39,222 nucleotides of DNA, taken from contig JTLS01000217.1 of assembly GCA_000826855.1 (NCBI GenBank), positions 1 through 39,222 of the forward strand, given 5' to 3'. The DNA is from Basidioascus undulatus (lineage: Eukaryota). Every line of letters starts with the position of its first letter. Position 1 is the first letter of the stretch. A program made the translations under genes and the position numbers. Of the stretch, positions 2,287 to 36,683 are shown one piece after another. The notes beneath the pieces were generated by a model. The model was given only the letters and a program-made list of their open reading frames with translations, made no database searches and was not told the DNA's origin.

Positions 2287-3388
2287 TGTGGAACGGGCGG
2301 AGGCGGGCTTGACGTTTGTTCGCCATCGGAAATAGGACAGCCGGGTTGTACATGGAATCCTGCAGTTTCGTGCTGCTTCTGCGAGTGAGGTTTTGATTCT
2401 GGTTCTGTAAAACTCAATACCCTTAGAAGAAGCCTGAAGTGCATGCCAGACAATGCAGTGGAGTGAAAGGCCCAGAGAGGGCCAGGGCCTTTTCTTACGT
2501 GTCTGCCTCGCACAGTAGTGCCAGTAGGTCGAATGCGAGACAGCGTCCTTTATAGTACATATGCTTCCTCATATTGTGCACATTACAGTTTACCATACAG
2601 TATTCTCCCCTGCCCTTGCAGTATTCAAGCCACTGTGAGGGGGAATTCAAGCGCACATACGACCAAGGGATGCAGCTTCGACATCGTCACGTCACTGCCA
2701 CTATCGTAGAGCAGAACACTGCCGTGCTCATTTCTCGGCTTTTGTGACTATCAGTGAAAGATTGCTATTGCTGCATACACGGCATGCAGCTCCATCTTGC
2801 GTAGGAAAGTGATCGACTGTGGAGGCGGAGCTTTTCAAGCAAGTTGGCAGGGCATGCTAGCGGCAGTCCGCCTCACCTCGGGTAGGCCGAACAATCATTC
2901 AATGCGAAAAATGTGTTCGAGCTTATACAAGATCTTCCACACACCCACCTGGTCGAAAGTCTTGAGGATTGTTGCACTCGAGCTGCCCCAGCGCCTCGAC
3001 GCGTACGGCGGCCGCATCTCGGTACCGGTCCCGCCCACATTGCGTCATTCAAGCTGGGATGAATTATCAAGTCAAGAGATCACTCTCGGCACTCCTTCGC
3101 TACCATACTCTTCGGAAGACGGGCTCGACCGACCAGAATTAATGTGCCGCACACGAGCAGCCGTACTTTTTTGAGCGTCTGCACATCATTAGCGAGCACC
3201 GCGTGTATTCATCATTACCACCTCCCGCTCGAGCGAAAGACGATTTCTTGACTTCGACTTGCGCCTCTTCCTCTCCTCCCATCTCTCTCCATCTCGGTTG
3301 CACCAACGCCTCTCATCTAGGACTTTACCCTCTATATTCCACTTATACCCCTCCATTACAACATTCCCTCCGCTTCCCCCCATCGATC

Positions 3389-4469
3389 ATGAGTTCGCAG
3401 AAGCACCTCTTCACGCTCACCGACCGCCCTGCCGAGTCCGTCCCGAGCCCGGACGACCCCGCGTACCACGACTGGCTCTCGTCCGAATTCGCCGCCGCGG
3501 CCGACCTCCTCTCCGAATCCGAAACCTGGCCGGTCAACCACACTCGAACCGAAGACGGCATCGACTTCATCGTACGCACCGCGCCGGCGCGCAAGAACCT
3601 AGGCGAGAGGCGCTCGTGGACCCTGCGCGAGAGCCTCCATGACGACGTGAGCTTCGAGCTCTTCGAGAGCACCAGCGGGGCGAAGCTGCATGAGAAGCAG
3701 GGCCAGTGGGACGAGAGCTTGATGGGCGCGGACAGGATCAGGGCGATTCAGGAAGGCCGGGCTGAAGGTGAGTGTCGTCCCGCTTTTCGGAAGGACGAGA
3801 GCGATGAAGCTGAGGTTGTGGTCTTGTGCAGTATGGCACAAAAAGATACGGGTACCGTAAGTGGAGGCCTCATCAACTCACATACGGGCGGCGTGGCTTA
3901 CCTTAAAACTCCCAACAGTCGCTCCTCCAACCGCGACTTTGCGTGCCTTCTCGTCACGGGCGAAAGCGAGTCCTCTCCTTCCACCCCCGTCACGCCCGAC
4001 TCCTCCGCGGCCTCAGTTGAAGACCGCCTTCGTTGCCTTATCGTCGTGACCCACCCGTACGAGCACCCGAACGAAAAGGGATTCACCCGCGGACGGTACG
4101 AGTCGATCGAGGTAGGTTTCGCTGCGTCTCCTCAAGCGATGGAGAGATAACGGTGCTTATTCCATGTCTAAGCTTACAGGAAATCAGGGAGGTCATGAAG
4201 GATGACCAGAAAGTCGTGATGTGGCGCTCGCTGCTTGCGAACGATCCCGGAGGGTTCGCGCCAGCCAAGATCGTCGACCGGCTGATCCCTTCCCAGGTGT
4301 GCTCATTTTCTCATTGCTCACCTGTACTTACCGGAACATATCGCTCACCGCCCCCCCTCAGCTCTGCTCGGACGGCGCTCGCTTCCTGAAGTTCGCCAAG
4401 GAATGGGACCAGAAACGACGGGCCGCCGGCAGCGAGGACAAGGCGGTGAATGGGAATGGTCAGGCTTGA
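3389..4469 (+). CDS. DUF3074 / START-like (SRPBCC fold) protein, about 5 exons
   Basis: Spliced product contains WTLRESLH, VWHKKIRVPRSSNRDFACLLV, KGFTRGRYESIE-EIRE, VMWRSLLANDPGGFAP, DGARFLKF, matching the recalled fungal DUF3074 pattern; GT-AG introns 3768-3831, 3857-3918 and two more downstream. Confidence 0.75.
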
Positions 4470-4884: not shown

Positions 4885-7357
4885 ATGCGGCGCGCTCTGA
4901 CCTCGTTCGCAGGGCTCGCCTTAGCGGCGTCTGCCGCGGCGTTCACCGTCGACATCTCGGACGCGGACGACATGCGCCAGGCGTGTTCGGGCATGTGGGG
5001 CGGCAAGAACGCCGAGATCTCGGTCGTCTTCGATGAGGGTGCGAAGGGGCAGGTCGCCGTAGGTATGTCCATCTCCTGAGTATCATGAGAGGATGTAGCC
5101 GTGTCGGCAAGGAGCTGATCTGGGATCTGTGCGGGCTCGGCGGGACAGCGATCTGGGAGTGGTCGGATATGAAGTACCTTGGCAAGCCTACGCCGGGGCA
5201 GCACACTGAGGAGTTCCCCGTAAGTCTCGAGTTCAGCTATTGGAGATACTTAGAGCGCTGAGCGGATGTTGGGCCCGTCCTCGTCATCTAGAAAACCTAC
5301 GTCTGCACCACCACCGCTTTCCGATCCAATCCGCCTCTCTGCACGTCCGACGAGCTCGGGCAGTTCATCGTCGACCTGCCCGAGGGCAAGTCCATCAACT
5401 CCACGAGCATATGGACAACCGCGGCGCGCTTCAGCGACGTAGACGTCGGGACGGAGAACGGCGGCGAGGCTGCGGGCGCGGTGGAGGACGATGCGGGCAG
5501 CAGCTCGGGCACGGGCACGCGCAATGGGCGGCTCAAGGAGGTCACTCCGGCCGGCGGCGAGGAAGATGACGAGGTTGAGGCTGGCGTTCCAGACGAGGAG
5601 GAGGAGGAGGAGCGCCGCATCGTCCGTCGTCAGGTCCTGCAGCCGAACCGTACGTGCTTCAGGTCGCAATCTGGTCTAGCATTTCAATCGCTGATCCATT
5701 TGCGGATCCTACATAGCCGGACCTTTCACGTACCCTGCGAAGAAGTCGGGCTACTACTGCGTGGGCACGGGTGGGTAGCCTGCCTCTTCGGCGATCGGTT
5801 TCAGCGGCGTGCTGACCTGGGAGGAACAACCAGTTCCGATAACCGTCGTGACCCCCGCCATCGACGCGTCCCAGGCGCACGGCTCGTTCACCGGCTCGGT
5901 TTACTTCAATGACCAGAGCGGGGGAGAGCTTCCCGCGAGCGAGGTTCCGCTTCTCGGCGTACGCACTTGGCGTGTCCTTGGCTTTGGGGATATGCACGCA
6001 TGCTGACTTTGCCCTCTTCACAGTTTTACGCTGCCATGAGCTGGATCTACGTCATGCTCGCTGCCGGGTGGGGCTTCCTCTGCTGGCGGAACAGGGACGA
6101 GCTGCTGCGTATTCAGGTCCCTGCATTGCTTCTTGCGGACACTCAGGCCCGAGCTGATCGTCTTCTCCGACCAATAGCACTACGTCACCGGTCTTCTCGT
6201 CTTCCTCATCCTCGAGAACTTCCTCAACTGGGGTGTGTCTTCCTCGATTGAGCTTTCTAGACAGGATCTGAAATCCCCTTCCAGGATACTACCACTACCT
6301 CTCCGTCACGCCGCCGTCCGCCTCGCCGGTGGTCTCCACGCTTCTCCTGGCCCTGACCGCGCTCGCCTCGGCCTTGCGTTCCTCGGCGTCCTTCTTCCTG
6401 CTCCTGACCATCTCGCTCGGCCTCGCGGTCGTCCGCCCCTCGCTCGACCCCACGACGATGAAGCGCGTCGTGATCCTCACTGCGGCGCACGCGCTCTTCG
6501 GCGTCGTATACGCCATCGGGACCGTCCTCGTCCGACTTGAGGAGGCAGCGATCTTCCTCCTGCTGCTCATGATTCTGCCGCTGGCGTTCACGCTCTCGGC
6601 GTTCCTGCTTTGGACGCTGTACTCGCTCAACGGCGAGTTTCTTGGTTCTTCCGTCGGATCCTCAAAACACGTGGCTGAATGCTATGTTATGCTTCAGGCA
6701 CGATCGCGCATCTCGAGCTGCGTCGGCAAAAGTTCAAGGTTGGGTGAGCTGAAGGCCTGCTTCTGCCGACTCTTCGAGCACGTCTGATCACAGTTCTCCA
6801 CCTTCAGCATGTACAAGAAGGTCTACCGAATCCTGATGGGCGCTGTCATCATCATCGCGGGCTTTTTCATACTTTCCACCTTCTCATTCTCCAACCGCTT
6901 CGACGACAACTTTGCGCCCTCGAATTGGAAATGGCGGTGGTTCCTGCTCGACGGGTGGCTCGGCCTGCTCTATCTTGCCGTACTCGTCTCGATCGCGTAC
7001 CTCTGGCGTCCGTCTCCGCAAAATGCGCGTCTGGCGCTCTCGGACGAGCTCGCAACGGACGAGGACGAAGCGAACGAGTTCGACCTCGCCGAGCGCGGGA
7101 ACGCTCAGAGCCCGACGCAGGACGGCGGCGACCGCCGGCAGCCGCCGCCGCGGTACGAGCACGACGAACTCCCAGCGGACGAGACGGTGTTTGCGCTCGA
7201 CGACGAGGACGAGGACACCGCTGCGGACCTGGACCGGGAGCTGGAGCGGCACAAGGAGGGGCTGGGCGAGCGCGCGACGGGCAGTCGGGGCGAGGAGGGC
7301 GAGCGGCTGTTGGGCAGAAGTAGGAGCCCGAGTCCCGATGGGAAGAAGCGAGATTGA
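4885..7357 (+). CDS. PTM1: PTM1 / lung seven-transmembrane receptor (LUSTR, GPR107/TMEM87-like) Golgi membrane protein
   Basis: Signal peptide MRRALTSFAGLALAASAAA, then RQACSGMWGG, KSGYYCVGT, GELPASE, RSSASFFLLLTISLGLAVVRPSL, WKWRWFLLDGWLGLLY, AYLWRPSPQN and an acidic tail; about 10 introns including GC-AG 6633-6697. Confidence 0.9.
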
Positions 7358-10666: not shown

Positions 10667-11533
10667 ATGTCCGCACCCACCGATATCCGCACGGCGACCA
10701 TCAAGCGCAAGACGAACGAGACCGACATCTCCGTCACGCTCACCCTCGACAACGCGCCAGGCAAGCAGTCTATCGCGGTCAACACCGGCATCGGCTTCCT
10801 GGACCACGTCCGTCTTCCAATTATTTACCACCACCACACCATCCGCCCTCCTCTTGAGAGCGCCGCAGCTGAGACGGAAGCGGACGTGTGGCACAGATGT
10901 TCCACGCGCTCGCAAAGCACGGCGGGCTGAGCCTCGACCTTCAGTGCACGGGCGACCTGCACATCGACGACCACCACACCGCCGAGGACACGGCCATCGC
11001 ACTCGGGATGGCGTTCAAAGATGCCCTGGGCGAGGTGCGCGGCATCAGGCGGTACGGGACCGGGTTCGCGCCTCTGGATGAGGTCCGTCATTTCCCTCCC
11101 CTCTCCCCTTCTCCTTGGCAGTGGTACTCATGGAGGGATGCGAACGTGCTGCGCAGGCCCTCTCCCGCGCCGTGATCGACATCTCCGGCCGGCCATACTG
11201 CGTCGCCGAGCTGCAGCTCAAGCGCGAAAAGATCGGCGCGCTCTCGTGCGAGATGATCCCGCACGTCTTCCACTCGTTCGCCACCGCCGCGGGCATCACG
11301 CTCCACGTCGACGTCCTGAGGGGGGAAAACGACCACCATAAGTGCGTTGCGGTTCCATCTGCGCTTCTGGGGCCTGAAGGGAAAGGGGTTGTCGGGGCGT
11401 TGAGGTTGACCGTGCGCGGGGCTGTTAAATTTACAGGTCCGAATCCGCATTCAAGGCTACTGCTCTTGCGCTCAAGCAGGCTATCGAACGCACGGGCGGC
11501 TCGGACGTTCCTAGCACCAAGGGCGTGTTGTAG
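10667..11533 (+). CDS. HIS3: imidazoleglycerol-phosphate dehydratase
   Basis: [70 protein letters not shown]; three GT-AG introns; divergent from the lectin gene with about 250 bp between start codons. Confidence 0.98.
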
Positions 11534-12021
11534 TCTCGATACCGCATCCGATGGACATGATCAATATCTATTCGCCTCGATCGTTCTTCGTCCTTTCGGC
11601 TCATATCATGGAAGGCGGGATGCTGGATGCTACATGTGTAGATCTGGACACGCTGGCCCGGCGTGTGGCGAAGCGTAACGGGCCAGGGAGACTGACGTTC
11701 TCGGCGACTTGACACGACTGACTGCCAGTGCTGTTATCCTCCCCCCTCCGCACGCATTCGCTCCCGCATCCTGCTTCGAGCCCTGCCTCTTATCGAACCG
11801 CGCAGCGCAGTGACACTTACAGCCTCCTTCCTCTCATTCTAAGAAAAGTAAGCGCAATGAATAAAGGTTGAAAGCAAACGGAGAACACAACAGCAGCAAC
11901 CACACCAAACCGCCCGTCCTTCAACGAATGCAACGGGCCAAATGCTCTCGTCCATTCCACTCCTCTCCTCCCCAGCCAACCCCAGCCCCTACCCGATCTT
12001 CCACGATATCCAGCGCAGAGT

Positions 12022-13669
12022 CTATGCCTTCCCACCCAGATCTTGCACCACCTCCTCCTTGCCCTTCTCTTCCACCTCGGGCGCAGCAGCAGCACCCGCA
12101 GACGGGGCCGCCTCGGCCGGAAAAGCCGCTGACGCAGCGGGGGCTGCGGAGGCGGATGCGGAGGTTGATGCCGCGGCGGAGGAGGACGGCTTAGTGGCGA
12201 GGCGCTGGTCGAGCGCCTTGAGCGCAAGGGCTCTGAAGGGTCGGAGAAAGGAAATTGATGAGCAGAGCCGCGGAGGGATTGAGGAAAGGGGATGGAAGGC
12301 GTACCTTCGCCGCTCGGCTTCCGCGCGGGAAGAGACGAAGCCGGACTCGAGGTCGCCCACTGGGGCTCCCCATGGCTGCAGGACCTTGAACTTCACCGCG
12401 AGGGCGAAGAGGGTGTTGGAGAGGAGGCCGACGGGCTTGCTGTTCCGCGCGCGAAGAAATCCCATTTCCCCAAACAGCATTAGATCCACACTACCTGAAG
12501 ACGCATACCGAAGGAAGGTGGAGAGAAACGCACTGGAGGAACGGCGGGAACCAGTTGACAAACGCGAACGTCTCGCTTCGGTCGCCCCTATACCCGCCCT
12601 CGCCGGCGATGTCGCCCGCGGGCGTCCACTTTACGAAGCGCAGGTAAAACCACGAGACGAGCCAGCCGAACTGGATTAGGATCCACGGCGACTGGAAGCC
12701 GACGATACAGAGGATGTTGGACAGCGTCACGTAGGCCATGGGGAGCGACTGAGGTGGAGTGGGAAGAGCGGCAGGGAGGAGTGAGAACGAGGAGTTGAGA
12801 AGGAAAGGAGGTAGAGTGGAGGGTAGGAACGCACCTTGACGCGGACTTTGAGGAAGCGGAAGAGCTGCACTTGGTGCTCCGGAATGAGCTGCGTGAACGC
12901 GACGAGGAAGCCCGTTTGCAGGGCTGTTTGACCGGAGTACGACATGCCGTATCTATCATCCACCCACATACGCACTCAGCATCCCCGTCTTCCCTCCTCG
13001 CCCTGGATCGCAGGCAGACAATGCAGGGAAACTCACAAGAACGACTCGCTCCCGAGGACGTAGAACTCCAGCACGTTCACGAAGATGGCGATGATGTTCG
13101 AGGCGACGATCACGACCGCGCAGAACTTGAGCAGCTCGAGCTGCCCCCATACGCGCTCGAGGTAGCGCCCGCTGAGGACGAGGGAGAGGACGGAGATGGC
13201 GAACTGCAAAGGGGTGCGAGGATGAGTTGCGGGTTGGAAAGGTGGGGAAGGCGGGAGGGTGGGTATGGGTAGAGATGAAGCGGAGACGCACGGAGAAGAT
13301 GTTGGTTTCGACAAAGCCGGCGGTGAGGAAAGACCAGGGGAACCAGTACGAGGCACCGGGCTGCGGGGGGTTGGGGGCAAGGGATTAGGTCCAGTTCCGT
13401 GCTGACCCGCCGCCTAGGCCGAGCATCAGACTCACAACGACCAGCAACCAGGGTTCATCCGTGTGTCCCCCCAATTCAAACGCATATCTGTACACCACGT
13501 GTACGAGCGAGAGCGCAGTGAGCGCGCCGACGAGCCAGCGCGTCGCGGGCGGCGTTTGGGTCACGAATGGCGGGAGACTGAACGGTCCGGCCACTGTCGA
13601 TCGAGTCCATGGAAAATCAGTCAGTATACCCGCCTGGAGACGGGTATGAACGGGGTAGAAAGACTTGCT
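12022..13669 (-). CDS. DUF1751 / TMEM115-like rhomboid-superfamily Golgi membrane protein
   Basis: PWSFLTAGFVETN, GRYLERVWGQLELLKF, GFLVAFTQLIPEHQV, FGWLVSWFYLRF, RGDRSETFAFVNWFPP, RAEAERRR-ALALKALDQRL; start codon inferred as A(13669)|TG(13593-13592) across a GC-AG intron. Confidence 0.88.
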
Positions 13670-14578: not shown

Positions 14579-17263
14579 ATGACTGAAGACGCCGCCAACG
14601 CGAGTGCGGCTTCGACCACGCCGGCTACCCTCCCGCTCGCGACCGATGCCAGCTCCAATTCGACGAAACTGCGCGCGCCGCCAGTCACGTCCGAGGAGGT
14701 CAACCTCCTCGTCCTCCACTACCTCCAAGATTCTGGTTCGCGCCTTTCCCAACTCGCTCTCATTGAAGCAAACCGCTTATTATTATTTCCATCCGTAACT
14801 TTGGCTTTGTCTTTTTAGGATTCTCGCACGCTGCGTTCGCGCTGAGAAACGAAGCGGCGCTGCACCTGCCTCAGCCCGACGCGCCGATCGAGCGCGGCTT
14901 GCTCGTCAAGTACCTCCAGAAGGGGCTCTTGTATGACGAAGTCGAGCAAACCGTTCAAGCTGTCCGTCTTCTATCTTCCGCTTATCAGTGTTCTTCCGCG
15001 TCCGCGCTCACACGACCGTGCACCCAGGACGGCACCATCGTCCCTTACCTTCACCCTCTCCGCCTTCTGGGCGACGCCACCCCCGCCGAAGCGACCACCG
15101 TCCTGCTCGTCCCTCCCTCGAACCCCCCTCCCGTAACACTCGCCACGCCCGCCGCGGCCTCCGCCGCAGTGGCCGCCGTCGCGCCGACAAACGGCGCAGC
15201 GGCAGCGGTGCAAGCCGGCGCGAAGCGCAAGGCTGCTGCGTCGCCGAGCGCAGTGCCCCGGCCGGAGGAGAAGAAGGCGAAGCGGAGCGTGTCGGGCACG
15301 CCGAGCGCGCAGGACCAGAAGCCCAGGAAGTCGCTGCACAAGCCAGGCCAGGCGCCGAGAAACCTCAAGCCGCTTGGGAAGGACGAGGCGATGTTTTTGG
15401 AGGGGCACAAGGGAAACGTGCGTTTCTGCCTCTTCAGAGGCTGTATGCGGCGCTCGTTCTGACAGGGCGCGGTGCCTTTCGCGCAGGTCTATTCGACTGT
15501 GTGGCATCCGAAGAATCCTTCGATTCTTGCGACCTCGTAAGTTTTTTTTAGATATTCCGTTACATAACGTCGCGCTGAGCCCACCATCGCTCGCAGAGCC
15601 GCCGACGGCACCGTTCGGATTTGGGATCTGCCTGAGGACCCGCTCGCCGAGCCCGACCACATCCTGCCGCCGACCTTGTGCGTACACAAGCCGCGCACGC
15701 CGAGCGACCCGAAGGACCTCACCACCATGGTCTGGAATGTGCGTCCCCCACTTCCGTTCTGATACTTACACGCGCGGCATGCCGGACTCGAGAGCTCACT
15801 CGTGGGACGCTGCGCACAGGCTCAAGGCACTCAGCTCGCGAGCGGCGCGTACGACGGCGGCGTGTGGGTGTGGTCCGCTGAAGGGAACAACTTGATGGAG
15901 GTGCGCTTCGTATCGTGCGGTCGGGCTTGTTGGCTGACTTCCGAGCTGAACGCGTGACTGTGACAGAGCCGCAAGCACACAGGGCCCGTCTTCGCCGTCC
16001 GCTTCAACCAGCGGGGAGACCGACTGCTTTCGTGCGTCGGCGCAGTTGCTTCGGTGGTTGTATGGGAAAGGCGGGTGCTGATGATGGTTGATGTGGGCGC
16101 AGAGTCGGTATCGACCAGCATACGATTGTGTGGGATCTCAAGACCCGGAAGGTTCTCCAAAAGTGGCACGTCCACACCGGTGAGCTTGCGGTAATGCTTC
16201 CTAATTTTCGACTCAATCTCACTCTTTAATCTGGCTTCGCCCTTCAGGCTCGATTCTCGACGCCGACTGGTTAGACAACGACATCTTCGCGACGTGCGCT
16301 TTACAGTCCTACAACGGCCTATCCTTTTTACATTCTGACATGAAATTGATGGCTGCGGGGGCGCGCAGTGCCGGCGGCGACCGAGTCATCGGCATCTTCA
16401 AAGTCGGGGAGTCCCAACCGCTGCGCATCCTGACGGGCCACTCGCGCGAGGTCAACCAAGTGCGATGGGACCCGTCCCGGACGCTTCTCGCGACAGGATC
16501 AGACGACACCACGTTGCGGTGCGTGCTTATTCTGAAACGAGCATCCAACGCAGCGCCGGTCTGATGCTGTTCGCGTTGGGTTGGGTTGGTGGGCAGGATC
16601 TGGAAGCTGGACTTGAAGTCCGAGGTCCGCACCGAGACGCAGCGCAAGCCGCCGCGCGACAAGGAGGTCATCCGGACCATGACCGGCCACACGCGCGAGA
16701 TCGGGTGCATCACCTGGGCACCCGCGACGTCTGCGTACCCTGACAAGAAGCTCTTTGCGTCGTGCGTCCCTCCTCTGCTCCGAACCGGCGATTCTGAGAG
16801 CGGGCATGCTGATGGGACGAGTCGGTGGGTGCAGCGGAGGCATGGAGGGCCAGGCGCGCATCTGGGACGTCGAGACGGGCGAGTGCCTCTGGAAGGTCGA
16901 CCACAGCTCGAACCACGTCTTCACGATCGACTTTGCGCCCGATGCGCGCATGGTCGCCATCGGAGGCGCGGACGCGCGGGTGACGCTGTGGCATACTCTC
17001 GTGCGCGCATCACGCGCTCTCTCTCAAGCTTCAGCTCACTCATCTGACTTTCCCTCCTGGTGGTAACGCAGAGCGGCCAAATCGAAAAGGACTGGCTCGT
17101 CCCCGATGGGCTGTACGACCTGCGCTGGCGGCCCGACGGCAAGCGCATCGCGTTCGGGACCAAGGGCGACGGGCTCGTCGTGGTCGACATGGACAGCTAC
17201 GAGGTGCAGCAGCGGGAGAAGAGCAAGAGCAAGGAGCGGGAGGACGGGCGCGCCTTGGCTTGA
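14579..17263 (+). CDS. SIF2: LisH + WD40 protein, Sif2/TBL1/Ebi family (Set3C/NCoR-type HDAC complex subunit)
   Basis: VTSEEVNLLVLHYLQDSGFSHAAFAL (LisH), GLLVKYLQKGLLYDEVE, and WD repeats (LEGHKGN, ADGTVRIWD, HTGPVFAVRFN, GHSREVNQVRWDPSRTLLATGSDDTT); more than 12 introns. Confidence 0.88.
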
Positions 17264-25155: not shown

Positions 25156-25530
25156 CTACATGTCCGCCACGACCGCTGTGGTATTTCCGCCATTTCCCCC
25201 CAGACCCGGACCTCCTTCCGCGGGTCCTCCAATCCCCTGTCCGGCGTTGGCCGTTCCGATTATAGCGATGGCCGTTCCGCCTGTGGTAGAAAAGGGCCNG
25301 GGGGGGGGGGGGGGGGGATGGTTAGTCCTTCCTTTCTTACCAAAGCACACAGAGACACACATACCCCTTCCGTCACCCCCTCGAGCAAATCCACCAACGC
25401 CCGGGCCCCCGTTCGCAGACTGGATAATCTGGCTCAGGTCCATGTCCTGGACTTGGGGTACCAGTGCTGTGTGCGCCGGCAGGGCGAAGCAGACGGTGAA
25501 GAGGATGGCCGTGAACGCAGGGGCAAGCAT
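25156..25530 (-). CDS. small secreted glycine-rich protein (about 96 aa)
   Basis: Signal peptide MLAPAFTAILFTVCFA-LP; intron 25281-25364 (GTATGT..ACTAAC..CAG); mature region ANGGPGVGGFARGGDGRGGTAIAIIGTANAGQGIGGPAEGGPGLGGNGG. Confidence 0.75.
   Translation of the reverse strand: MLAPAFTAILFTVCFALPAHTALVPQVQDMDLSQIIQSANGGPGVGGFARGGDGRGMCVSVCFGKKGRTNHPPPPPPXPFSTTGGTAIAIIGTANAGQGIGGPAEGGPGLGGNGGNTTAVVADM
25299..25317. repeat. poly-G homopolymer with an N (assembly ambiguity) inside an intron
   Basis: n at 25299 followed by about 18 G. Confidence 0.9.
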
Positions 25531-27400: not shown

Positions 27401-28422
27401 ATGACATTCCAAATATCTAACGTTTTCATATCTTACCCCACCTTCTTTGTACTGCTGGCTATCGGCTGCATCGCCGGGGCTCTCATCTGGGCCGTCAAGG
27501 ACTACCGATCCTTCATCGCTTTCGGTACGTCGTGGACTGCCTCGCCTCAGTGATGAACCCCTCCCCCATTCGAGATCCCACTAAAAGATCTGTTCCCTAA
27601 ACACAGGCACAGGCGGTATCTCCCCCGACCTACACGGATGGTGGCTGGTCACCTCCCTTCGCATCTGGCTGGTCGCCTCGCGGGCGGACCTGAAGGACGT
27701 GCGGGCGTTGGAATCGAGCCGGGATGCGAGGGGCTTCTTGGGCGGACAATTGAAGGACAGGGGGAGAGAACGTCCCCGTTTGGCTGGGAGGTATGCAAAT
27801 CATTAATTTATGCCTCGCCAGATAGCGCTGCTGACAACCGCCCTGTAGGCCACTCCCGCAGCGGCAGATCACGACGTCCAGTCTGCAGCCGTTGAACAGC
27901 CAACTCGAAGCGGCACGTCGCTATCTCCTGCCCCTCGGATCAGAACTATTTCTGAATAGTTCTTCCTTTCCTAAGTCCCTCCTCGCGCTCCTCCCCGCAC
28001 TCGTCGCCGCCCACCCGCACCTCCTCCACCTTGCGCCCTCCTCCGAGCGTTCCTCCCTCGGGCTCTACGCCACCCCCTCGCCCTTCACCTCCTCCCCCGC
28101 CTCCACCACAGACTTTGCATTCATGAAGGGCGAGATCGCCCACGTGCACGGACACGACCGCTCGCTGCACGTCGTCCTCAGCCCGAAGGACGCGGCGGAG
28201 GTGATCAACCGCGGGTGGGGGGTGCGGTTCCCGATGGCTGGCTGGGGCGGGGAGAGGATCGGCGTCACGCTGGTTTATATGCCTGAGAGCGAGGAGGTGC
28301 GTTGAAGAACTGTGAGAGAGTAGACGGTGCTAACGAAACAGTGGCACGGGCAGGACCTCAAAGTCGTCCAGGCCATCGTCAAGGCGGGAGTAGCGTGGAT
28401 GACCGGCACAGTGGTCGCTTGA
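27401..28422 (+). CDS. fungal luciferase (Luz)-like / DUF5519 domain protein with N-terminal TM helix
   Basis: TM helix, then KDYRSFIAFGTGG, ERPRLAGRPLPQRQ, GEIAHVHGHDRSLHVVLSPKDAAEVINRGWGVRFPMAG, TLVYMPESEEDLKVVQAIVKAGVAWMTG; four introns. Confidence 0.85.
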
Positions 28423-28561: not shown

Positions 28562-31323
28562 TCATGACCGCCTAGCATCCACAATCAATACGTCCTTCAC
28601 CTTCACCTTCTCCTTCTCCTTCTCTTCCTGCGCCCCTAGTTCCCCTCCTCCCGCACCATCCTTCTGCTCCGACCTCTTCTGTCCTCCCGCCGTCGTCCCC
28701 AGGCCCTCCGACTTCTCCCCCATCCCGCTCTGGCTCTCCTTGACCCCACCAGCATTCCCGCCCTGCGGCTCCGCAGCCAGCCCAGGCGCAGCCGGCTCGG
28801 CCTTCGCTGCCTCCGCCTCCACGCCGGCGCCCGCACCCGCACCCGCGATAGGCGGGGGAGGCGGCCAGACGAGCGTGCCGGCCTTCCACCGGCTCTGGCA
28901 GCGATTGCACATGAGGCACCCGTCCGGCCCGCGCCGCCATGAGGGGGTCTCCTGCGTGCCTAAACCCACATAGCCCCACATCTCAGCCTCATCAACCGGC
29001 TGACCGCAGTAGTACGTGAAGAGAAGGACAGACGACGACGTACCGCATGCGACGCACACCTTCCTCGTCCCATCCGGAAGCACATTATTAACGACCTTGC
29101 GCTTCTTCGTCTTTGTCTTCTTCTCCGCAGCGGGGGAGTCGAGCACTGCGAGCGCGGACGCGGACGCGGACGCCTTGCGCTTCTTGGACGTCGACGGCGC
29201 GGGGGTCTGCGCGGCCGCTGGGGCGGGGGAGGTGGAGGACGCGGACGAGGCGGCGCGCCGGTGCGCGGAGAGCGGGACGGTCCGGATCTGTGTTGGGGCA
29301 GGTGTTGTCGGGGTGGGCGCCCCCGACGCGGCGGGGAGGGCCTTGTGCAGCGGTCGAGGGGCGAAGCGGTCTGTGAAGATCTGTTGCGGGAGCTGTGCGT
29401 TAGGTTGGGACGATGTGGGATGGGAGCAATGGGAAGACATAGACGTACGTCTTCGAGATGCGATGGGAGCGGCTCGTCGACTGGGATGCGATAATGGAGG
29501 AAACCGCGGGGTGGGACGTGCTTGGCCTATCGCATACCGCATACCACCTTCGTATCAGCCTGCGCTTCGTCCACCCCGCGAAACCTCGGCAAAAAGCGCA
29601 CCAGCTCCCTCAGCTCCTCCTTCCTCTTCGCGACGTCCACGCCAATGCTCGCGCGCTCAAACGCGGCCCACAGCGTCGTCGGGCAGCCCGTCAAGCGGAG
29701 CGTGACGGGGTGCACGGGCGGATGCGCCGACTGTGGGGGCGGCGCGGCAGGGGTCTTCTTCTTGGTGTCGGTCGCCGGAGTCGGCGTGGCGGTGGTGGGG
29801 TCGGTGATGGAGGTGGAAGGAGGGATGGGAAAGAGGAAGGAGCCCTTTAAGGGAACGAAGAACGATAGACGGATCTCGGGGAATGCGGGAGTGCCGTGCC
29901 GCGAGGCGATGATTCTGTCCATCGGGAGGATCCAGCTGTCCAACGAGAAAAAGGTTATGAATCATCAGTCAAAGCTTCACCGGCGGGCGGAATGCAGATG
30001 AGGAGAGACGCAACCGGTCTTGCGGGTTGTCCCGGAACTCGATGACCACTGCGCTAGGCGTGCGGACTGGCTTCGGCGGGAACGCGGGGAAGGATGAGGG
30101 AAATGCGTTGGGCAGAGACGGCGTGGCGGAGGAGGTAGAAGGTAATGGTGTAGCGGTCGGAGCGGCGGTGGCGGAGGAAGACGGGCCGGGCGCAGCAGGC
30201 GCAGGCGTGCGGGGGAGATTCGGCGGTGGCAATTTCGAGGAGGACGCCGCCGGCGTAGATGCAGCAGTGGGTGCGGTAGGTTTGGACGGCGTCGAAGCCG
30301 CCCCGGGGGTAGAGGATGTGGAAGCTGTCGACCTGGGGGCGGCGGGGGAGGAGGAAACCGATGGAGGGCGGGCGACCGATGGGGACGGAGAGGCGGCAGC
30401 GGCGATAGATGGGCCTAGAGTAGAAGGTTCAGCAGTCGGCGCCGGCTTGGGCGCTGCGGCTTTGATCGCGGCGATCCATGCCCCGAGCGCCTTAAGCTGG
30501 TCGGACGTCGCCTTGCCCGCTGCTGCGAGCTGCAGGACTTGGCCGAGGAGCGGGTTGAGGGCGGCGGCGGCGTTCACCTGATGAAGGAGCTTGATAATTG
30601 AGATGACTTTTGAAGGAGCGGAGGGAAGGGTTGAGAAGAAAGACACACCTGAGCGACCAGGTGAGCATCGACCGTCGTGGAGCTCGGCGCGGGCGGCGGC
30701 CTAGGCGCGGACACCGGCGGTGGTGCTGGCGTCTGCGGCATAGGCCTCGGAGTCGAGACGGCCCTAGGCGCCGGCGACGCCTTTGCCTTTTCTTTCTCCT
30801 TCCCCTTCTTCTTTGCCCCTCCCGCGGCCGCCCCGCCGACCGGCCCCGCCGTCTCGACCCACTTGACCTCGAACAACTTGGTCTCGCCAAACACGTGCGG
30901 GCCGACGTCGATATCGACCTTGCCGAGGGGTACGATCGTGTGCGGGGGCTGGACGATCTCCTGAGCGTTCTTTGCGCGCGAGCGGGTGGAGAACTTGGGG
31001 AAGAGGGAGGTGAGGTATGTCTGGCGGGACTGGCGGAGGGACTGGGCGAGGACGAGGCTGGGGGGAGTCGCGTTCTCAACACATGTCTTCCAAGAAAACA
31101 ATGAGACAGCAAGAGCGCACCTCTGTTCGATTGTACGCAGCTGGCGGTGTGTCTTTACCCTGTCCTCCTCGCCTTCGACCTCGGCGGGGAGGACGACGGG
31201 CTCGGCGAGCTCCTCCCAGTCACCGGGGGGCTGCGGCGCGGTCCCCATGGGGAGATCGACCCGCCGCGGGAGGTCGTTTACGTTGGCGCGCCGTGACTGG
31301 TTCGCCGGCGTCGACGTGGACAT
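28562..31323 (-). CDS. Swc3-like (SWR1 complex) protein with C-terminal GATA-type zinc finger
   Basis: LAQSLRQSRQTYL..FPKF, LGKVDIDVGPHVF, VVIEFRDNPQDRWILP, HPVTLRL resemble Swc3-like segments; spliced finger CVACGTQETPSWRRGPDGCLMCNRC (C-x2-C-x17-C-x2-C); internal exon structure partly uncertain. Confidence 0.65.
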
Positions 31324-32063: not shown

Positions 32064-35000
32064 ATGGTCAGCAGGTCGAACCTCGCTCTCAGCCCGTCCA
32101 AGCTGCACCTCCTCGACAGGGACCAGGTGCAGCCCGTCGGGATGAGCAGTCCGCCGTCTTTTCCCTATCTGTCTCCCAAGTCGGTGAGTAGCTTTTGATG
32201 AACCGTGCTCGGGGCGAAAAGGGTACTCACAGTTTATCTTCGTTCTGGCACGCAGCGTCGCGAGTCGCCGCCCAGCATCTCGACGTCGTCTTCGCTCGTT
32301 TCGCTTAGCGTGTCCGAGAAGGTACCTCGCCCCTCGAGAAAATTCTGACCCTTATTCCCTAATACTCCATTAAATTTCCTCCTATTTACACAGTACCACA
32401 TCTCTCCCGACCCTGCTTTCTGGGGCAGCACGACAGAAGGTCCCGAACCCGACGACCACTTGCAGTGAGCATTTTCTTTCGCCCGCTCTTCAGGAAGCAT
32501 CCGCCGAATTTCTGATCACCATAACACCAGTCTACCCGACCCAAAACGCGACGCCCGGCGCGACCTCGCCCGCGACTTCTTCACCAAGCGCGGCATCCAG
32601 AACGTCGGCTGCCTGGCAATCCTCGTCCTCCTCCTCATCGCGCTCTTGTCCGTCCCATCCCCCCTCCACTCATCAGCCCCCAGCTCACCTTCTCCCCTTC
32701 CAGTGCTGTTTACCCTCTTCTCTCGTACCCCTCTCTCTCCTTCCGCTTCCTTCCTCCGCTCACCAGCCCCGCCCCCACAGCTATTTCGTCCGCCCCTCTC
32801 CCAACACTCTCGGCGGGTACGGTCTGGGAGGGATCAACGGGACCGGCCAAGTGCCCGACCTCCCCTTTGGGCTGATCGACCCCGATACGCCCGCCGAGGC
32901 GCTCAGGCGCACGGGGTTTGATGGGAGGGAAATGGAGCTGGTTTTCTCCGACGAATTTGAGGTTGAGGGGAGGAGCTTCTATAAGGGGGACGACCCGTAC
33001 TGGGAGGCAGAGGATATTCACTACTGGCAAGTACGCCTGCTTCGAAACTTTCGTCTCTTTGGTTGGGGGAAGAATATCGTGAGCTGATTCGGGGCCGGGG
33101 ACGTGCGCTCAGACATCCAACCTGGAGTGGTACGTCTTCTGGGCTGCCGTTCAGCTTTCTGCGCTTGACTCCTGACTTTGATGGACACCGAAGGTATGAT
33201 CCCCGACAGATAACGACCACCGAGGGCAAGCTAGCCATCACGCTCTCCGACACCCCGAGCCACGGCCTCAACTACACTGGCGGGCTGCTCATGTCGTGGA
33301 ACAAGTGCGATGCACAGTCTCCGTCCGCCTACTGGTCTCCAGCTTTCTGACCTTCGGAAAACCTGGTGGATCTAGGTTCTGCTTTACCGGAGGCTATCTT
33401 AGCGGTACGGTCGTCACTGCCCCCTCGAGTTGAGGCAGCGGTTGCTGAAAGCGAGGCTGTTCCCCTGCGCAGCGTCCATCTCTCTTCCTGGTCATCCAGA
33501 CGTTGCTGGACTTTGGCCAGCCTTCTGGAGCCGTCCGTTTCCATTTAATTTTGAACTACCATTAGGTTCTTAACGCCTCTTTCGTCTACAGTAGGTAACC
33601 TGGGCCGAGCGGGCTACGGCGCAACACTTGAGGGAATGTCAGTCCTTTCCGCGCTTTCCTTCGACACACCGGAGCTGACATTCGCTTGACTTCAGGTGGC
33701 CGTATGTTTACGGGGACAGGTGCTGTATTGACGCCGAATTCATTTATCCTTACCCCTCTGCGTAGATACACGTACGACTCGTGCGATGTCGGGGTCAGTT
33801 TCCCGTTCATTGGTCTTGAGCACGGTCCTTACCACGCCCCACCTGCAGACACTCCCGAATCAGACCCTGGACGGTACGTTTTCGTATTCCTCTGATCAAC
33901 CCTCACCCTTCGCTGAATGTTCCCTTCCTCCCCGCAGGCAAGCCCGAGGTCGCCCTCACTTCCGGCAAGATCTACAGCGACTACGAGCTGTACGTCTGCG
34001 TCTTCCGAGCCTGTTCCATTCTCTCCCAAATTTCACACCCATTGGTTTTCTTCATACACAGATCGTACCTCCCCGGCCAGCGTCTCTCGCGCTGCACATG
34101 CGACGACCCCGAGTCTTTCCACCCCGGTCCAAAGGACGCCAACGGCGACTACGTAGGGCGCGGAGCGCCTGAAATCGACGGTAGGTCTTGAGTGATACGA
34201 GGGAAGCACGTCCTCAAGCTCATCTTTGGGTGAGGGATAGTCCTCGAGGCGACGGTCGAGCAGAATCTTCGGCTCGGACAACTCAGCCAGAGCGGGCAAT
34301 GGGTGCGTTGTCGAACTAGGAAATTGCTTGGGGTCTTGCACCCTGACGGGCCTGGGGAAAGCGCAGGCACCCTTCAATGCGTACTATGAGGTGTGTCCAT
34401 GTCTGTTTCCGTACAGGCGGAAGGACAGCAAGAGAGCCTTTGACACGCGATTAATCGCAGTGGACCAACACCTCCGAAACGTACACGCTTCATGACGAGG
34501 ACTACGAATGGCCTACGCACCTCAACGAATACACGGGTCAGTAGTGATCTCGTGGTTCTCACCATGCCTTAACCCTGATACAAACCTTTGAGGAGAATTT
34601 AGGTGGCGAGTTCCAGCAAGCGTCCTCGGGCATCGCAAGTTTTCTTTCCATCGACCCGCTCCAGCGATACTGACGCCAGACGGTTCCCAAGGCCACTGCG
34701 AACCAATCCTGCTACAGCGGAGCCAATCCCACCCCATCGTCAGGCTGTTACTCTGAGGTTCGCCTCTTTTCCCCTTCCGATGAGCCTTCGTTCTCTGAAA
34801 AGCCCTTGCCCACAGTACGGCTTCGAATACGTTACCGGACCAGACGGTTACATCGTGCCCCCTTTCCCCACTTAATAGACGTGTATTGAAATGGTATTGA
34901 TGTCAGCATCTGCTAGGGCTGGGTTGCGGACGGTCGCCGGACGTGGACGGTCAAGGCTGCTGGCCTGGGACCGGACCCACGCGTGGAGATCGACACGCGT

Positions 35001-36076
35001 CCAATCCCGACTGAGCCTATGGTAACTCTTTGGATTACAACAAATAGTGTTTTCTGTTTTAACCTGTTCGCTTACCTTCGCAGTATATGTGAGTCAAATG
35101 TTCAGGCAAAGAAATCGTGCGCTCCAAAACCGCTGACCGTCTACCCGCGATGGTCGCGATACAGAATCTTGAGTGAGCCTTCATTGGCCATAAGGGCAAT
35201 ATGTGTGCGACTGGGGCTTACTGTGATTTCCTTGGTAGACTTGGGCATCTCTCCTAGTGCGTCCTCGCCGGTGGTTGTTTGTCTTGTTTCCGTGATTTGA
35301 TCTTGCTGACAGGCTTTGCGCCGCAGAGTACGCAGCCTGTCAAAGCTTTTACTGAAGGGGTCCACTTGAACCCATGCTTTTCCACCTCAGGTTCGGATAT
35401 ATCAACTGGGACGAGCTGTCCTGGTGAGCTGCCGTGTTCTTCGAAGCGTGTTTCAGAGCGCTGACTTGGTCTTGCGGCAGGCCGGCGGTCATGTACGTGG
35501 ACGTGAGTCACAAACCCACTTCCCTTGTTGTAAAAGGACCAAAGTCTAATGATGCTGTTTTCCACTGTGGCCTTTGAAGTGGGTGCGAGGTGCGTGGTAG
35601 CCTCCGACGAAACTACGTGGCTGCTAGCTAAGCACCGTTACGAGCTGAAAGCGTCCCCTGGGCCTGCAGTATACCAGCCAGTGTATTTACCCTTATTTCT
35701 GCTTTGATTAGCAAAATTAAACTAACGGGTCTAAATGCAGTGACGCCAAAAACATCGGCTGCGACCCGCCTGATCGCCCGACTGCGGCATACATTGAGCG
35801 ATTCCCAGAAGGTGCGCAATACTCGAGTGCTTACCCAACTGCTCGTTCATAGAACTAACAGGTTCTATAACTAGCATACATCAATCCCAACCTCACCACA
35901 TGGGTCAGTTCGAGTTTACTTGCCTACCCCGCGGAGACTGACACGGAAGGGAACGCAGGTTAACGATTACGGACTGGCGTTCCCCAGTACGTAACAGGGG
36001 TTTGGATAGGCTGTCTGAAGTTACGGAACACTGAGATTGTTCTCCTCCAGAAAACAGACTGGTCGACGACTGCTAG
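32064..36076 (+). CDS. KRE6: KRE6/SKN1-family GH16 beta-glucan synthesis-associated type II membrane protein, about 35 exons
   Basis: [17 protein letters not shown] + [82 protein letters not shown] (catalytic EIDxxE), EPMYIILNLG, IGCDP, FPKNRLVDDC*. Confidence 0.93.
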
Positions 36077-36683
36077 CCATTGCACGATTCAACTGACTGT
36101 GGAATGGGTTCTTGTCCTGCTTGAGTTTCACGAACTGGTTTGCGGTGCCTTGCCTCCTTCTCTCTGTTTTCTAAAGATACCACGCTCCTTTTGCGTTCCC
36201 TCTTGGTACAATGCCTGTGACCACGATCGCTGTAAAGAACGCACACCGTGTGCTGCGCTGCGCACTGTAGTTTCAACGACGGTCAGGTTGTGTGCGTTTT
36301 ATCTGGTGTTACTCAAACTACGAGCATCCAACGAATTGCCTCAGAAGGGTCCCTGAACAAGATCGACAGCTTGTTGCGTCAAAGGAGGGAACGAGCTTTG
36401 GGAGCGTTCAAAGGAGTCGCCCCTCGTTCGCCGAAGGGCTTATCGCCACTCAAACGGACGTGCCCTATTGGGCACCCCGAGATTTCGGGATCTGAATTTT
36501 TAAATTGTCAGATACTTGGATACCAATGGCGATCCCCATACCACGTTGGCACTGCAACTTGGGCGAAGGCCAACAGCCGAGCATTCTTGCAGAACGGCCT
36601 TTTCTTCTGACCACCACCTCGGCCCTGAAGCCCATCGCTCCTCGCCGGCGTACCACATACGCCTCACAGATTTTCGACAAGCA

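Follow-up and report, generated by a model that had tools for sequence, protein, structure and literature searches.

The window analysed here, a stretch of 39,222 nucleotides from Basidioascus undulatus (contig JTLS01000217.1), contains a complete gene of the KRE6/SKN1 family:

32064..36076, forward strand: KRE6/SKN1-family (GH16) coding region of 35 coding exons and 34 introns, encoding 601 residues

The model of this gene, which was assembled from displayed joints between transcript and genome, contig coordinates, canonical splice sites and homology, holds 1806 coding nucleotides in one open frame. Direct backing from displayed joints exists for 23 introns, and contig coordinates combined with canonical sites support ten more; for intron 1 and the start codon, which the compared stretch does not include, the sequence is the only source. 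All introns are 55-82 nt long, and 33 of them are of the GT-AG type. The single GC-AG intron (34635-34691, GCAAGT...AAG, 57 nt) is needed both for the number of contig letters over 34535-34917 (1+32+66+39 = 138) and for the family spacing FQQ...CY; an exon set restricted to GT donors did not reproduce the letter count of this region and was rejected.

Assignment to the family follows from Pfam domain PF03935 (SKN1/KRE6/Sbg1), which matches the open reading frame at 32374-33084 with 78.9 bits (cutoff 30) and two further exon reading frames with 34 and 30.1 bits (cutoff 30), and which is carried by all 120 homologues listed for a query with the N-terminal exon. A partial model of 539 residues (without exons 1 and 2) aligns to the very C-termini of its homologues at 54-59% identity, the best of them (P0070, 59%) being a Rhizoctonia protein; to judge by such hits, the organism is a basidiomycete. 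We take a GH16 catalytic motif E-x-D-x-x-E and a type II membrane layout to be expected of the KRE6/SKN1/Sbg1 family; in the translation, the letters EIDVLE can be read, and a single hydrophobic stretch follows the N-terminal part. The locus is an intact, expressed KRE6/SKN1 (GH16) gene. Elsewhere in the window, Pfam matches include DUF3074 (3143-4147), a GOST seven-transmembrane domain (5913-7354), imidazoleglycerol-phosphate dehydratase (11082-11675), DUF1751 (13036-13413, minus strand), WD40 (16205-17063), the 'Luciferase domain' PF17648 (59.5 bits, on the forward-strand reading frame 27835-28302) and a GATA zinc finger (28565-29554, minus strand), and the window's single N is at position 25299.

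Toward the 3' end of the KRE6 gene, two exons are separated by an interval of 134 bases that is laid out as follows:

35239..35256, forward strand: 18-nt exon holding the end of an Asn codon, the codons for L G I S P and, as its last letter, the spare A that opens the Lys525 codon; donor GTGCGT comes next
35257..35326, forward strand: upstream intron of 70 nt, GTGCGT...CAG, read from the sequence; its donor ranks 6th and its acceptor 5th of 32
35261..35266, forward strand: weak rival donor GTCCTC, 0.03 bits, unused in the dominant transcript
35306..35310, forward strand: branch-site candidate CTGAC of the upstream intron, with its A (35309) 17 nt from the 3' end of that intron
35327..35327, forward strand: one-nucleotide exon, A, the middle letter of AAG (Lys525), supported by the transcript contig and by its AG and GT flanks (...GCCGCAG before, GTACGC... 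after)
35328..35390, forward strand: downstream intron of 63 nt, GTACGC...CAG; its donor ranks 15th and its acceptor 4th of 32
35391..35423, forward strand: 33-nt exon that opens with a spare G (the last letter of the Lys codon), followed by TTC GGA TAT ATC AAC TGG

The original prediction, made from the letters of this region, had described a spare A at 35256, a lone A at 35327 and a spare G at 35391, separated by two introns of normal size, with a CTGAC signal in the first of them. All of these elements are present in the sequence, and introns of 70 and 63 nt lie inside the gene's range. The splice sites are also of good quality: the ranks given above come from leave-one-out matrices over 32 introns, in which used donors reach 6.5-7.7 bits and GTCCTC at 35261 scores no higher than the mean of unused GTs. 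A strict branch-site match 15-28 nt before the intron end is found in 14 other introns among the 32, and the downstream intron (35328-35390) has no strict YTRAY match, like 11 others of the 32. Among the 20 A's of the 134-base interval, that at 35327 is the only one with AG directly before it and GT directly after it. Such an arrangement can nevertheless arise by chance: when the 134-nt interval was shuffled with its dinucleotide composition and its ends kept, 1037 of 20000 shuffles (5.2%) held AG-A-G[TC] with two introns of at least 50 bases, so that the pattern in the DNA, taken alone, is only suggestive.

Transcript evidence comes from three sequencing runs (X1, X2 and X3) that were compared with positions 32300-36200. 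None of them is recorded as RNA, and X3, which derives from the same sample as X2, is labelled 'DNA?' and has no library type on record. X3 contains a contig (record 11; 2059 letters, depth 157) that is spliced at GT..AG joints and shows zero differing letters in all displayed pieces, the 3' UTR included. For five joints of this contig, the letters between the two sides of the joint were tabulated: at the joint in question, the left side ends at 35256, and exactly one letter, an A, stands between 35256 and 35391. The cDNA junction that had been predicted, TCTCCT-A-A-GTTCGG, is therefore the one that the transcript contig carries. In X1 and X2, unspliced contigs (depths 16.3 and 46.9) run across 32300-36200 without differing letters and without gaps, and GT..AG joints were found in 0 contigs at every joint; the absence of spliced forms from these two runs indicates that the X3 contig stems from RNA and not from an intron-less DNA copy.

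The number of letters in the contig also calls for the A. Between its anchors (record positions 50-542) lie 493 letters, and the exon chain 105+5+8+18+1+33+22+10+13+71+29+28+150 sums to 493, as against 492 without the A: the count is reproduced only when the one-letter exon is included. The RNA support is a single contig, assembled from one run; the A belongs to the dominant form, and contigs lose rare isoforms. X1 and X2, for their part, may be the source of the window itself; several of their contigs agree in length (13427, 5850), and they have the same record coordinates here, and may thus be one data set filed twice and not independent of each other.

Other contigs touch the region as well. 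A second contig of X3 (164 letters, depth 3.9) is unspliced over 35396-35557, running through intron 35424-35480 and into the one that follows, and may represent pre-mRNA, intron retention or a trace of DNA. Other DNA contigs of X1 and X2 match only stretches of 20-36 letters with 1-3 differences (32866-33397, 34066-34101, 35742-35768). The probable source of these short matches is a set of about four KRE6/SKN1 paralogues at other places in the genome, and such paralogue fragments explain two odd 'joints' that are not of the GT..AG type (33008 to 33376; 33397 to 35751).

Could the A be produced from this DNA in a simpler manner? Neither AGTTCGG nor CTCCTAA was found within 35200-35450, so no single genomic cut or excision yields the observed junction. 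We also considered a longer exon hidden by the alignment, because the aligner had shifted boundaries at the 17-nt and 6-nt exons of this gene, where letters are ambiguous; at the 6-nt exon GTGGCC (33696-33701), for example, it gave only 4 letters because two also fit the donor side. A longer hidden exon would call for an internal GT or GC in the 18-nt exon or an AG in the 33-nt exon, and for the flanking letters to recur within the interval. On reading the sequence, none of these is present, and a longer hidden exon was accordingly rejected as the source of the A.

The protein provides a further check. With the A, the reading is ...NLGISPKFGYINW..., which fits the S-x-x-F/W spacing of the family; without it, a frameshift exchanges the last 76 residues for others, in agreement with the earlier claim that joining the two recognisable exons directly would frameshift the gene. 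The AAG codon of the original prediction fitted the Kre6 spacing NLGxSxxFG, and homologues bear this spacing out: among the 83 of 120 returned proteins that are at least 450 aa long, 75 separate the S of NLG[MI]S from the next F/W by exactly two residues, and not one has 0, 1, 3 or 4. Eight of the 83 fell off-pattern in the count, and a closer look showed that P0033 fits the two-residue pattern and that P0034 has the same spacing, while another is four residues short and the remaining five stop or become dissimilar ahead of the motif. With the one-letter exon, the protein reads S-P-K-F and has the spacing of the family.

Three other explanations of the A, or of the splice itself, were weighed against a one-nucleotide exon. 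The main splice might use the weak donor GTCCTC at 35261 and remove one intron of 130 nt, giving ISPSAFG; GTCCGT donors do occur twice in the gene, and the product would be in frame (602 aa). However, the contig leaves the genome at 35256 and not at 35260, the donor scores at background level, and the resulting S-P-S-A-F places three residues between S and F, which occurs in none of the 83 homologues and at none of 78 related metagenome loci. Use of this donor, which the original prediction had named as the observation that would overturn it, is thus contradicted for the dominant form and could at most produce a minor isoform; as an account of the main splice, it is barely credible. Alternatively, the DNA that is expressed might differ from the window, either as a second haplotype or because the true sequence holds an extra A where the 18-nt exon ends, with a single intron of 134 nt. 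Such a difference would be easier to overlook if X1 and X2 are the window's own source or one data set, and contigs drop rare variants. Against it, the contigs of both runs are clean over 32300-36200 (an assembly indel, the other outcome that had been named as fatal, is absent from both, doubtful as their independence is), no alternative contig is listed, and the transcript contig is exact in the displayed exons and the 3' UTR, which points to the same allele. Moreover, because all introns of the gene are 55-82 nt long, a single intron of 134 nt would be an outlier far beyond their range. We therefore regard a difference in the DNA as very unlikely.

The remaining alternative is that the A is real in the contig but is not templated by position 35327, having arisen as an assembly artefact, by editing or polymerase slippage, or through non-canonical splice sites. 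That the observation stems from a single contig, and that the interval holds 19 other A's, speaks for this; but the contig is exact elsewhere at a depth of 157, the A restores both the frame and an invariant spacing, an outcome that would be pure coincidence for an artefact, and all 34 modelled introns are GT-AG or GC-AG, 23 of them on displayed rows. To our knowledge, no insertional editing of nuclear mRNA occurs in fungi. An untemplated A thus appears highly improbable. The assignment of the letter to 35327 rather than to another A relies on the canonical flanks of that position. Taken together, the observations make it very probable that position 35327 is a genuine single-nucleotide spliceosomal exon. 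The introns that flank it would be removed sequentially, and it is most likely a by-product of dense intron gain.

If so, position 35327 would supply the middle letter of the Lys525 codon AAG in a KRE6/SKN1-family GH16 gene, set between two ordinary short introns with canonical GT..AG ends and good signals that lie one base apart. The AG that would end the first intron also forms positions -3 and -2 of the donor of the second, such that the two sites overlap: with a 3' splice site inside the -3..-1 context of a donor, both introns cannot be engaged at once, and with a length of one letter, exon definition is impossible. Since simultaneous engagement is precluded, we infer that the introns are taken out in two successive steps under intron definition, a sound conclusion from such crowded splice sites. 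The signals would permit either order of removal, because the donor at 35328 scores the same in both states (6.54 bits before and 6.62 bits after removal of the upstream intron).

Such a process would be much like recursive splicing with one letter kept. Zero-nucleotide recursive splicing at ratchet points, which is known from Drosophila and vertebrates, splits very long introns. Like a ratchet point, the KRE6 site consists of a 3' splice site followed by a 5' splice site and involves two successive reactions; but ratchet points keep no letter and lie in very long introns, whereas the KRE6 site leaves a letter in the transcript and sits between two short introns (70 and 63 nt). Position 35327 may thus work like a zero-nucleotide recursive splice site without being a member of that class.

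The one-nucleotide exon lies among other very small exons, the nearest of which upstream of the 18-nt exon are:

35084..35088, forward strand: 5-nt exon TATAT, its letters present in the transcript and flanked by CAG and GTGAGT
35165..35172, forward strand: 8-nt exon AATCTTGA, its letters present in the transcript and flanked by CAG and GTGAGC

At the joint from 35021 to 35239, the transcript contig carries 13 letters. Eight consecutive exons of 5, 8, 18, 1, 33, 22, 10 and 13 nt (110 coding nt) lie within 35022-35740, separated by introns of 57-80 nt, and the letters of all small exons are carried by the transcript contig.

Over the gene as a whole, exon lengths range from 1, 5, 6, 8, 10, 13, 17 and 18 up to 250 nt, and their distribution resembles that of random cuts: the coefficient of variation is 0.94 as observed and 0.95 as simulated, and 5 exons of 10 nt or less are present where 5.7 are expected. 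When 34 introns were placed at random in 1806 nt, 47% of 100000 placements contained at least one internal exon of 1 nt. With exon lengths of this kind, a one-nucleotide exon is an expected product of dense and unconstrained intron gain, and not of selection; most likely, it is a by-product of that gain rather than an adaptation. We found no sign of an introner-type family, in that the 34 introns gave no blastn-short hit among themselves at E <= 0.01.

Comparison with related loci points in the same direction. The original prediction had proposed looking for a conserved site in orthologues; among 78 related metagenome loci (best identities 36-60%), none has an intron in the Lys525 codon, which is read straight through in one frame at 73 of them, the other 5 stopping short. 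Because no close relative is among the 78, this absence dates nothing. Breaks between tblastn segments in these loci occur at only about 6-7 of the 34 intron positions (near residues 125, 400, 444, 479, 514 and 574), and the loci have long uninterrupted stretches where the B. undulatus gene holds many introns. Given this read-through, both introns around the A, and most of the others, look lineage-specific. With 34 introns in 1806 coding nucleotides, the density is about 19 per kb; other Pfam-matched reading frames in the window run uninterrupted for up to 166 aa, a weak indication that the KRE6 gene may be exceptionally rich in introns even within its own genome.

The two introns around the A also contain a short inverted repeat, which raises the question of whether pairing between introns contributes to the splicing of such exons:

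35307..35315, forward strand: 5' arm TGACAGGCT of an inverted repeat that pairs perfectly over 9 bp; it shares letters with the branch candidate and takes in an unused AG at 35311-35312
35334..35342, forward strand: 3' arm AGCCTGTCA of the inverted repeat, within the downstream intron

The predicted local fold (51 nt, -18.1 kcal/mol) holds the branch candidate and the unused AG (35311-35312) within its stem; its apical loop comprises the A together with the 3' splice site before it and the first donor letters after it. A perfect run of at least 9 was seen in 4 of 1056 non-cognate pairs of flanks and in 19 of 20000 shuffles, and the flank duplex energy of -20.6 kcal/mol was reached by 3.1% of non-cognate pairs. 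Folded as a whole, the 185-nt region was not significant (z = -1.05; 34 of 200 shuffles folded equally well), which leaves the local stem as the one notable element, and no Rfam family was matched between 31900 and 36400. The idea that flank pairing generally serves small exons had to be rejected, since cognate flanks averaged -10.08 kcal/mol and non-cognate flanks -10.19 kcal/mol; cognate flanks being no more complementary as a class, the local stem is a lead and not a finding.

A second place in the gene shows predicted pairing. The introns flanking the 17-nt exon at 33113-33129 (33031-33193) are complementary over most of their length: their whole-intron duplex has an energy of -54.5 kcal/mol, matched among 1089 non-adjacent pairs only by the same pair reversed, the 30-nt flanks of the exon reach -32.8 kcal/mol, a value attained by 0 of 1056 non-cognate pairs, and the local fold at 33083-33159 is predicted at -35.3 kcal/mol. 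This putative structure would be of the same kind as the stem at 35327 and much stronger.

Were pairing at work, the stem around 35327 would bury the branch candidate of the upstream intron together with the AG that lies too close, so that the downstream intron would be spliced out before the upstream one is freed, and the order of removal would be built in. Together with exon lengths like those of random cuts, this would describe a fungus without a lower limit to exon size, in which about 27 introns, gained in a burst confined to this gene, made a one-nucleotide exon by chance. That pairing from intron to intron helps the tiniest exons, that it sets a downstream-first order, and that some 27 gains gave rise to the exon, is a combination that we consider doubtful.

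One-letter exons are already known in plants and fungi, and the exon described here is the first example that we could find in a KRE6/SKN1 gene: neither among 30 titles listed from 37 literature matches nor among the 10 best-ranked of 305 does any link KRE6 to a micro-exon. The original prediction had called such exons extremely rare, with APC11 of Arabidopsis as a described case. Rare they are, but APC11 does not stand alone, since one-letter exons also occur in CYP621A of Fusarium, in 13 genes of Coprinopsis and in Cryptococcus. APC11 contains a constitutive one-letter exon, proven by mutagenesis (Guo and Liu, 2015; PMC4674806), which, like ours, is an A with AG and GT flanks that is needed for the frame, and which was missing from the annotated APC11 model (PMC4674806). 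The two differ in layout, the A of APC11 being at position 333 of a 422-nt interval and that of KRE6 between introns of 70 and 63 nt, and in the kind of proof, in that the A of APC11 was changed to T or G or deleted in reporters, whereas the KRE6 exon is known from one transcript contig. For APC11, intron definition with a recursive-like removal of one intron after the other was proposed by the authors (PMC4674806).

Another such case is CYP621A of Fusarium, where, as in KRE6, the middle letter of one codon within a conserved motif of a fungal nuclear gene forms an exon of its own (PMC12940212, 2026). The CYP621A interval measures 139 nt, about twice the median intron, and the argument drew on SRA reads and on the spacing seen in a relative whose gene is intronless, with conservation over 24 aligned sequences (PMC12940212). 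CYP621A is an ascomycete P450 and its letter is a G (AGGGT), whereas that of KRE6 is an A, and its site is conserved in 24 aligned sequences, whereas the KRE6 site was found in no orthologue among the 78 loci. The same paper claims the first fungal case, although earlier genome papers had already counted exons of 1 nt: in Coprinopsis cinerea, 13 genes together hold 13 of them (PMC12230235), and Cryptococcus neoformans has exons described as being 'as small as 1 bp' (PMC3990503). Both species resemble ours in being basidiomycetes with short introns and many micro-exons, and their one-letter exons were recognised from transcripts and are missed by automatic prediction; unlike the KRE6 exon, those exons appear in the available sections of those papers as counts without individual description. 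It is possible that a KRE6 homologue is among the 13 Coprinopsis genes, and three supplementary text files of the Coprinopsis study make no mention of microexon, KRE6 or SKN1.

The exon at 35327 has a direct consequence for annotation: a gene model without this letter would describe a frameshifted or misspliced KRE6 whose last 76 residues are lost, the protein being, to judge by its family name, presumably an enzyme associated with beta-1,6-glucan synthesis. It adds a well-documented case with a checkable junction to the very short list of individually described one-nucleotide exons, and provides a compact natural substrate on which to study the order of removal of two abutting introns. The eight consecutive small exons and the random-like exon lengths of the gene argue that intron-defined splicing here tolerates exons of any length.
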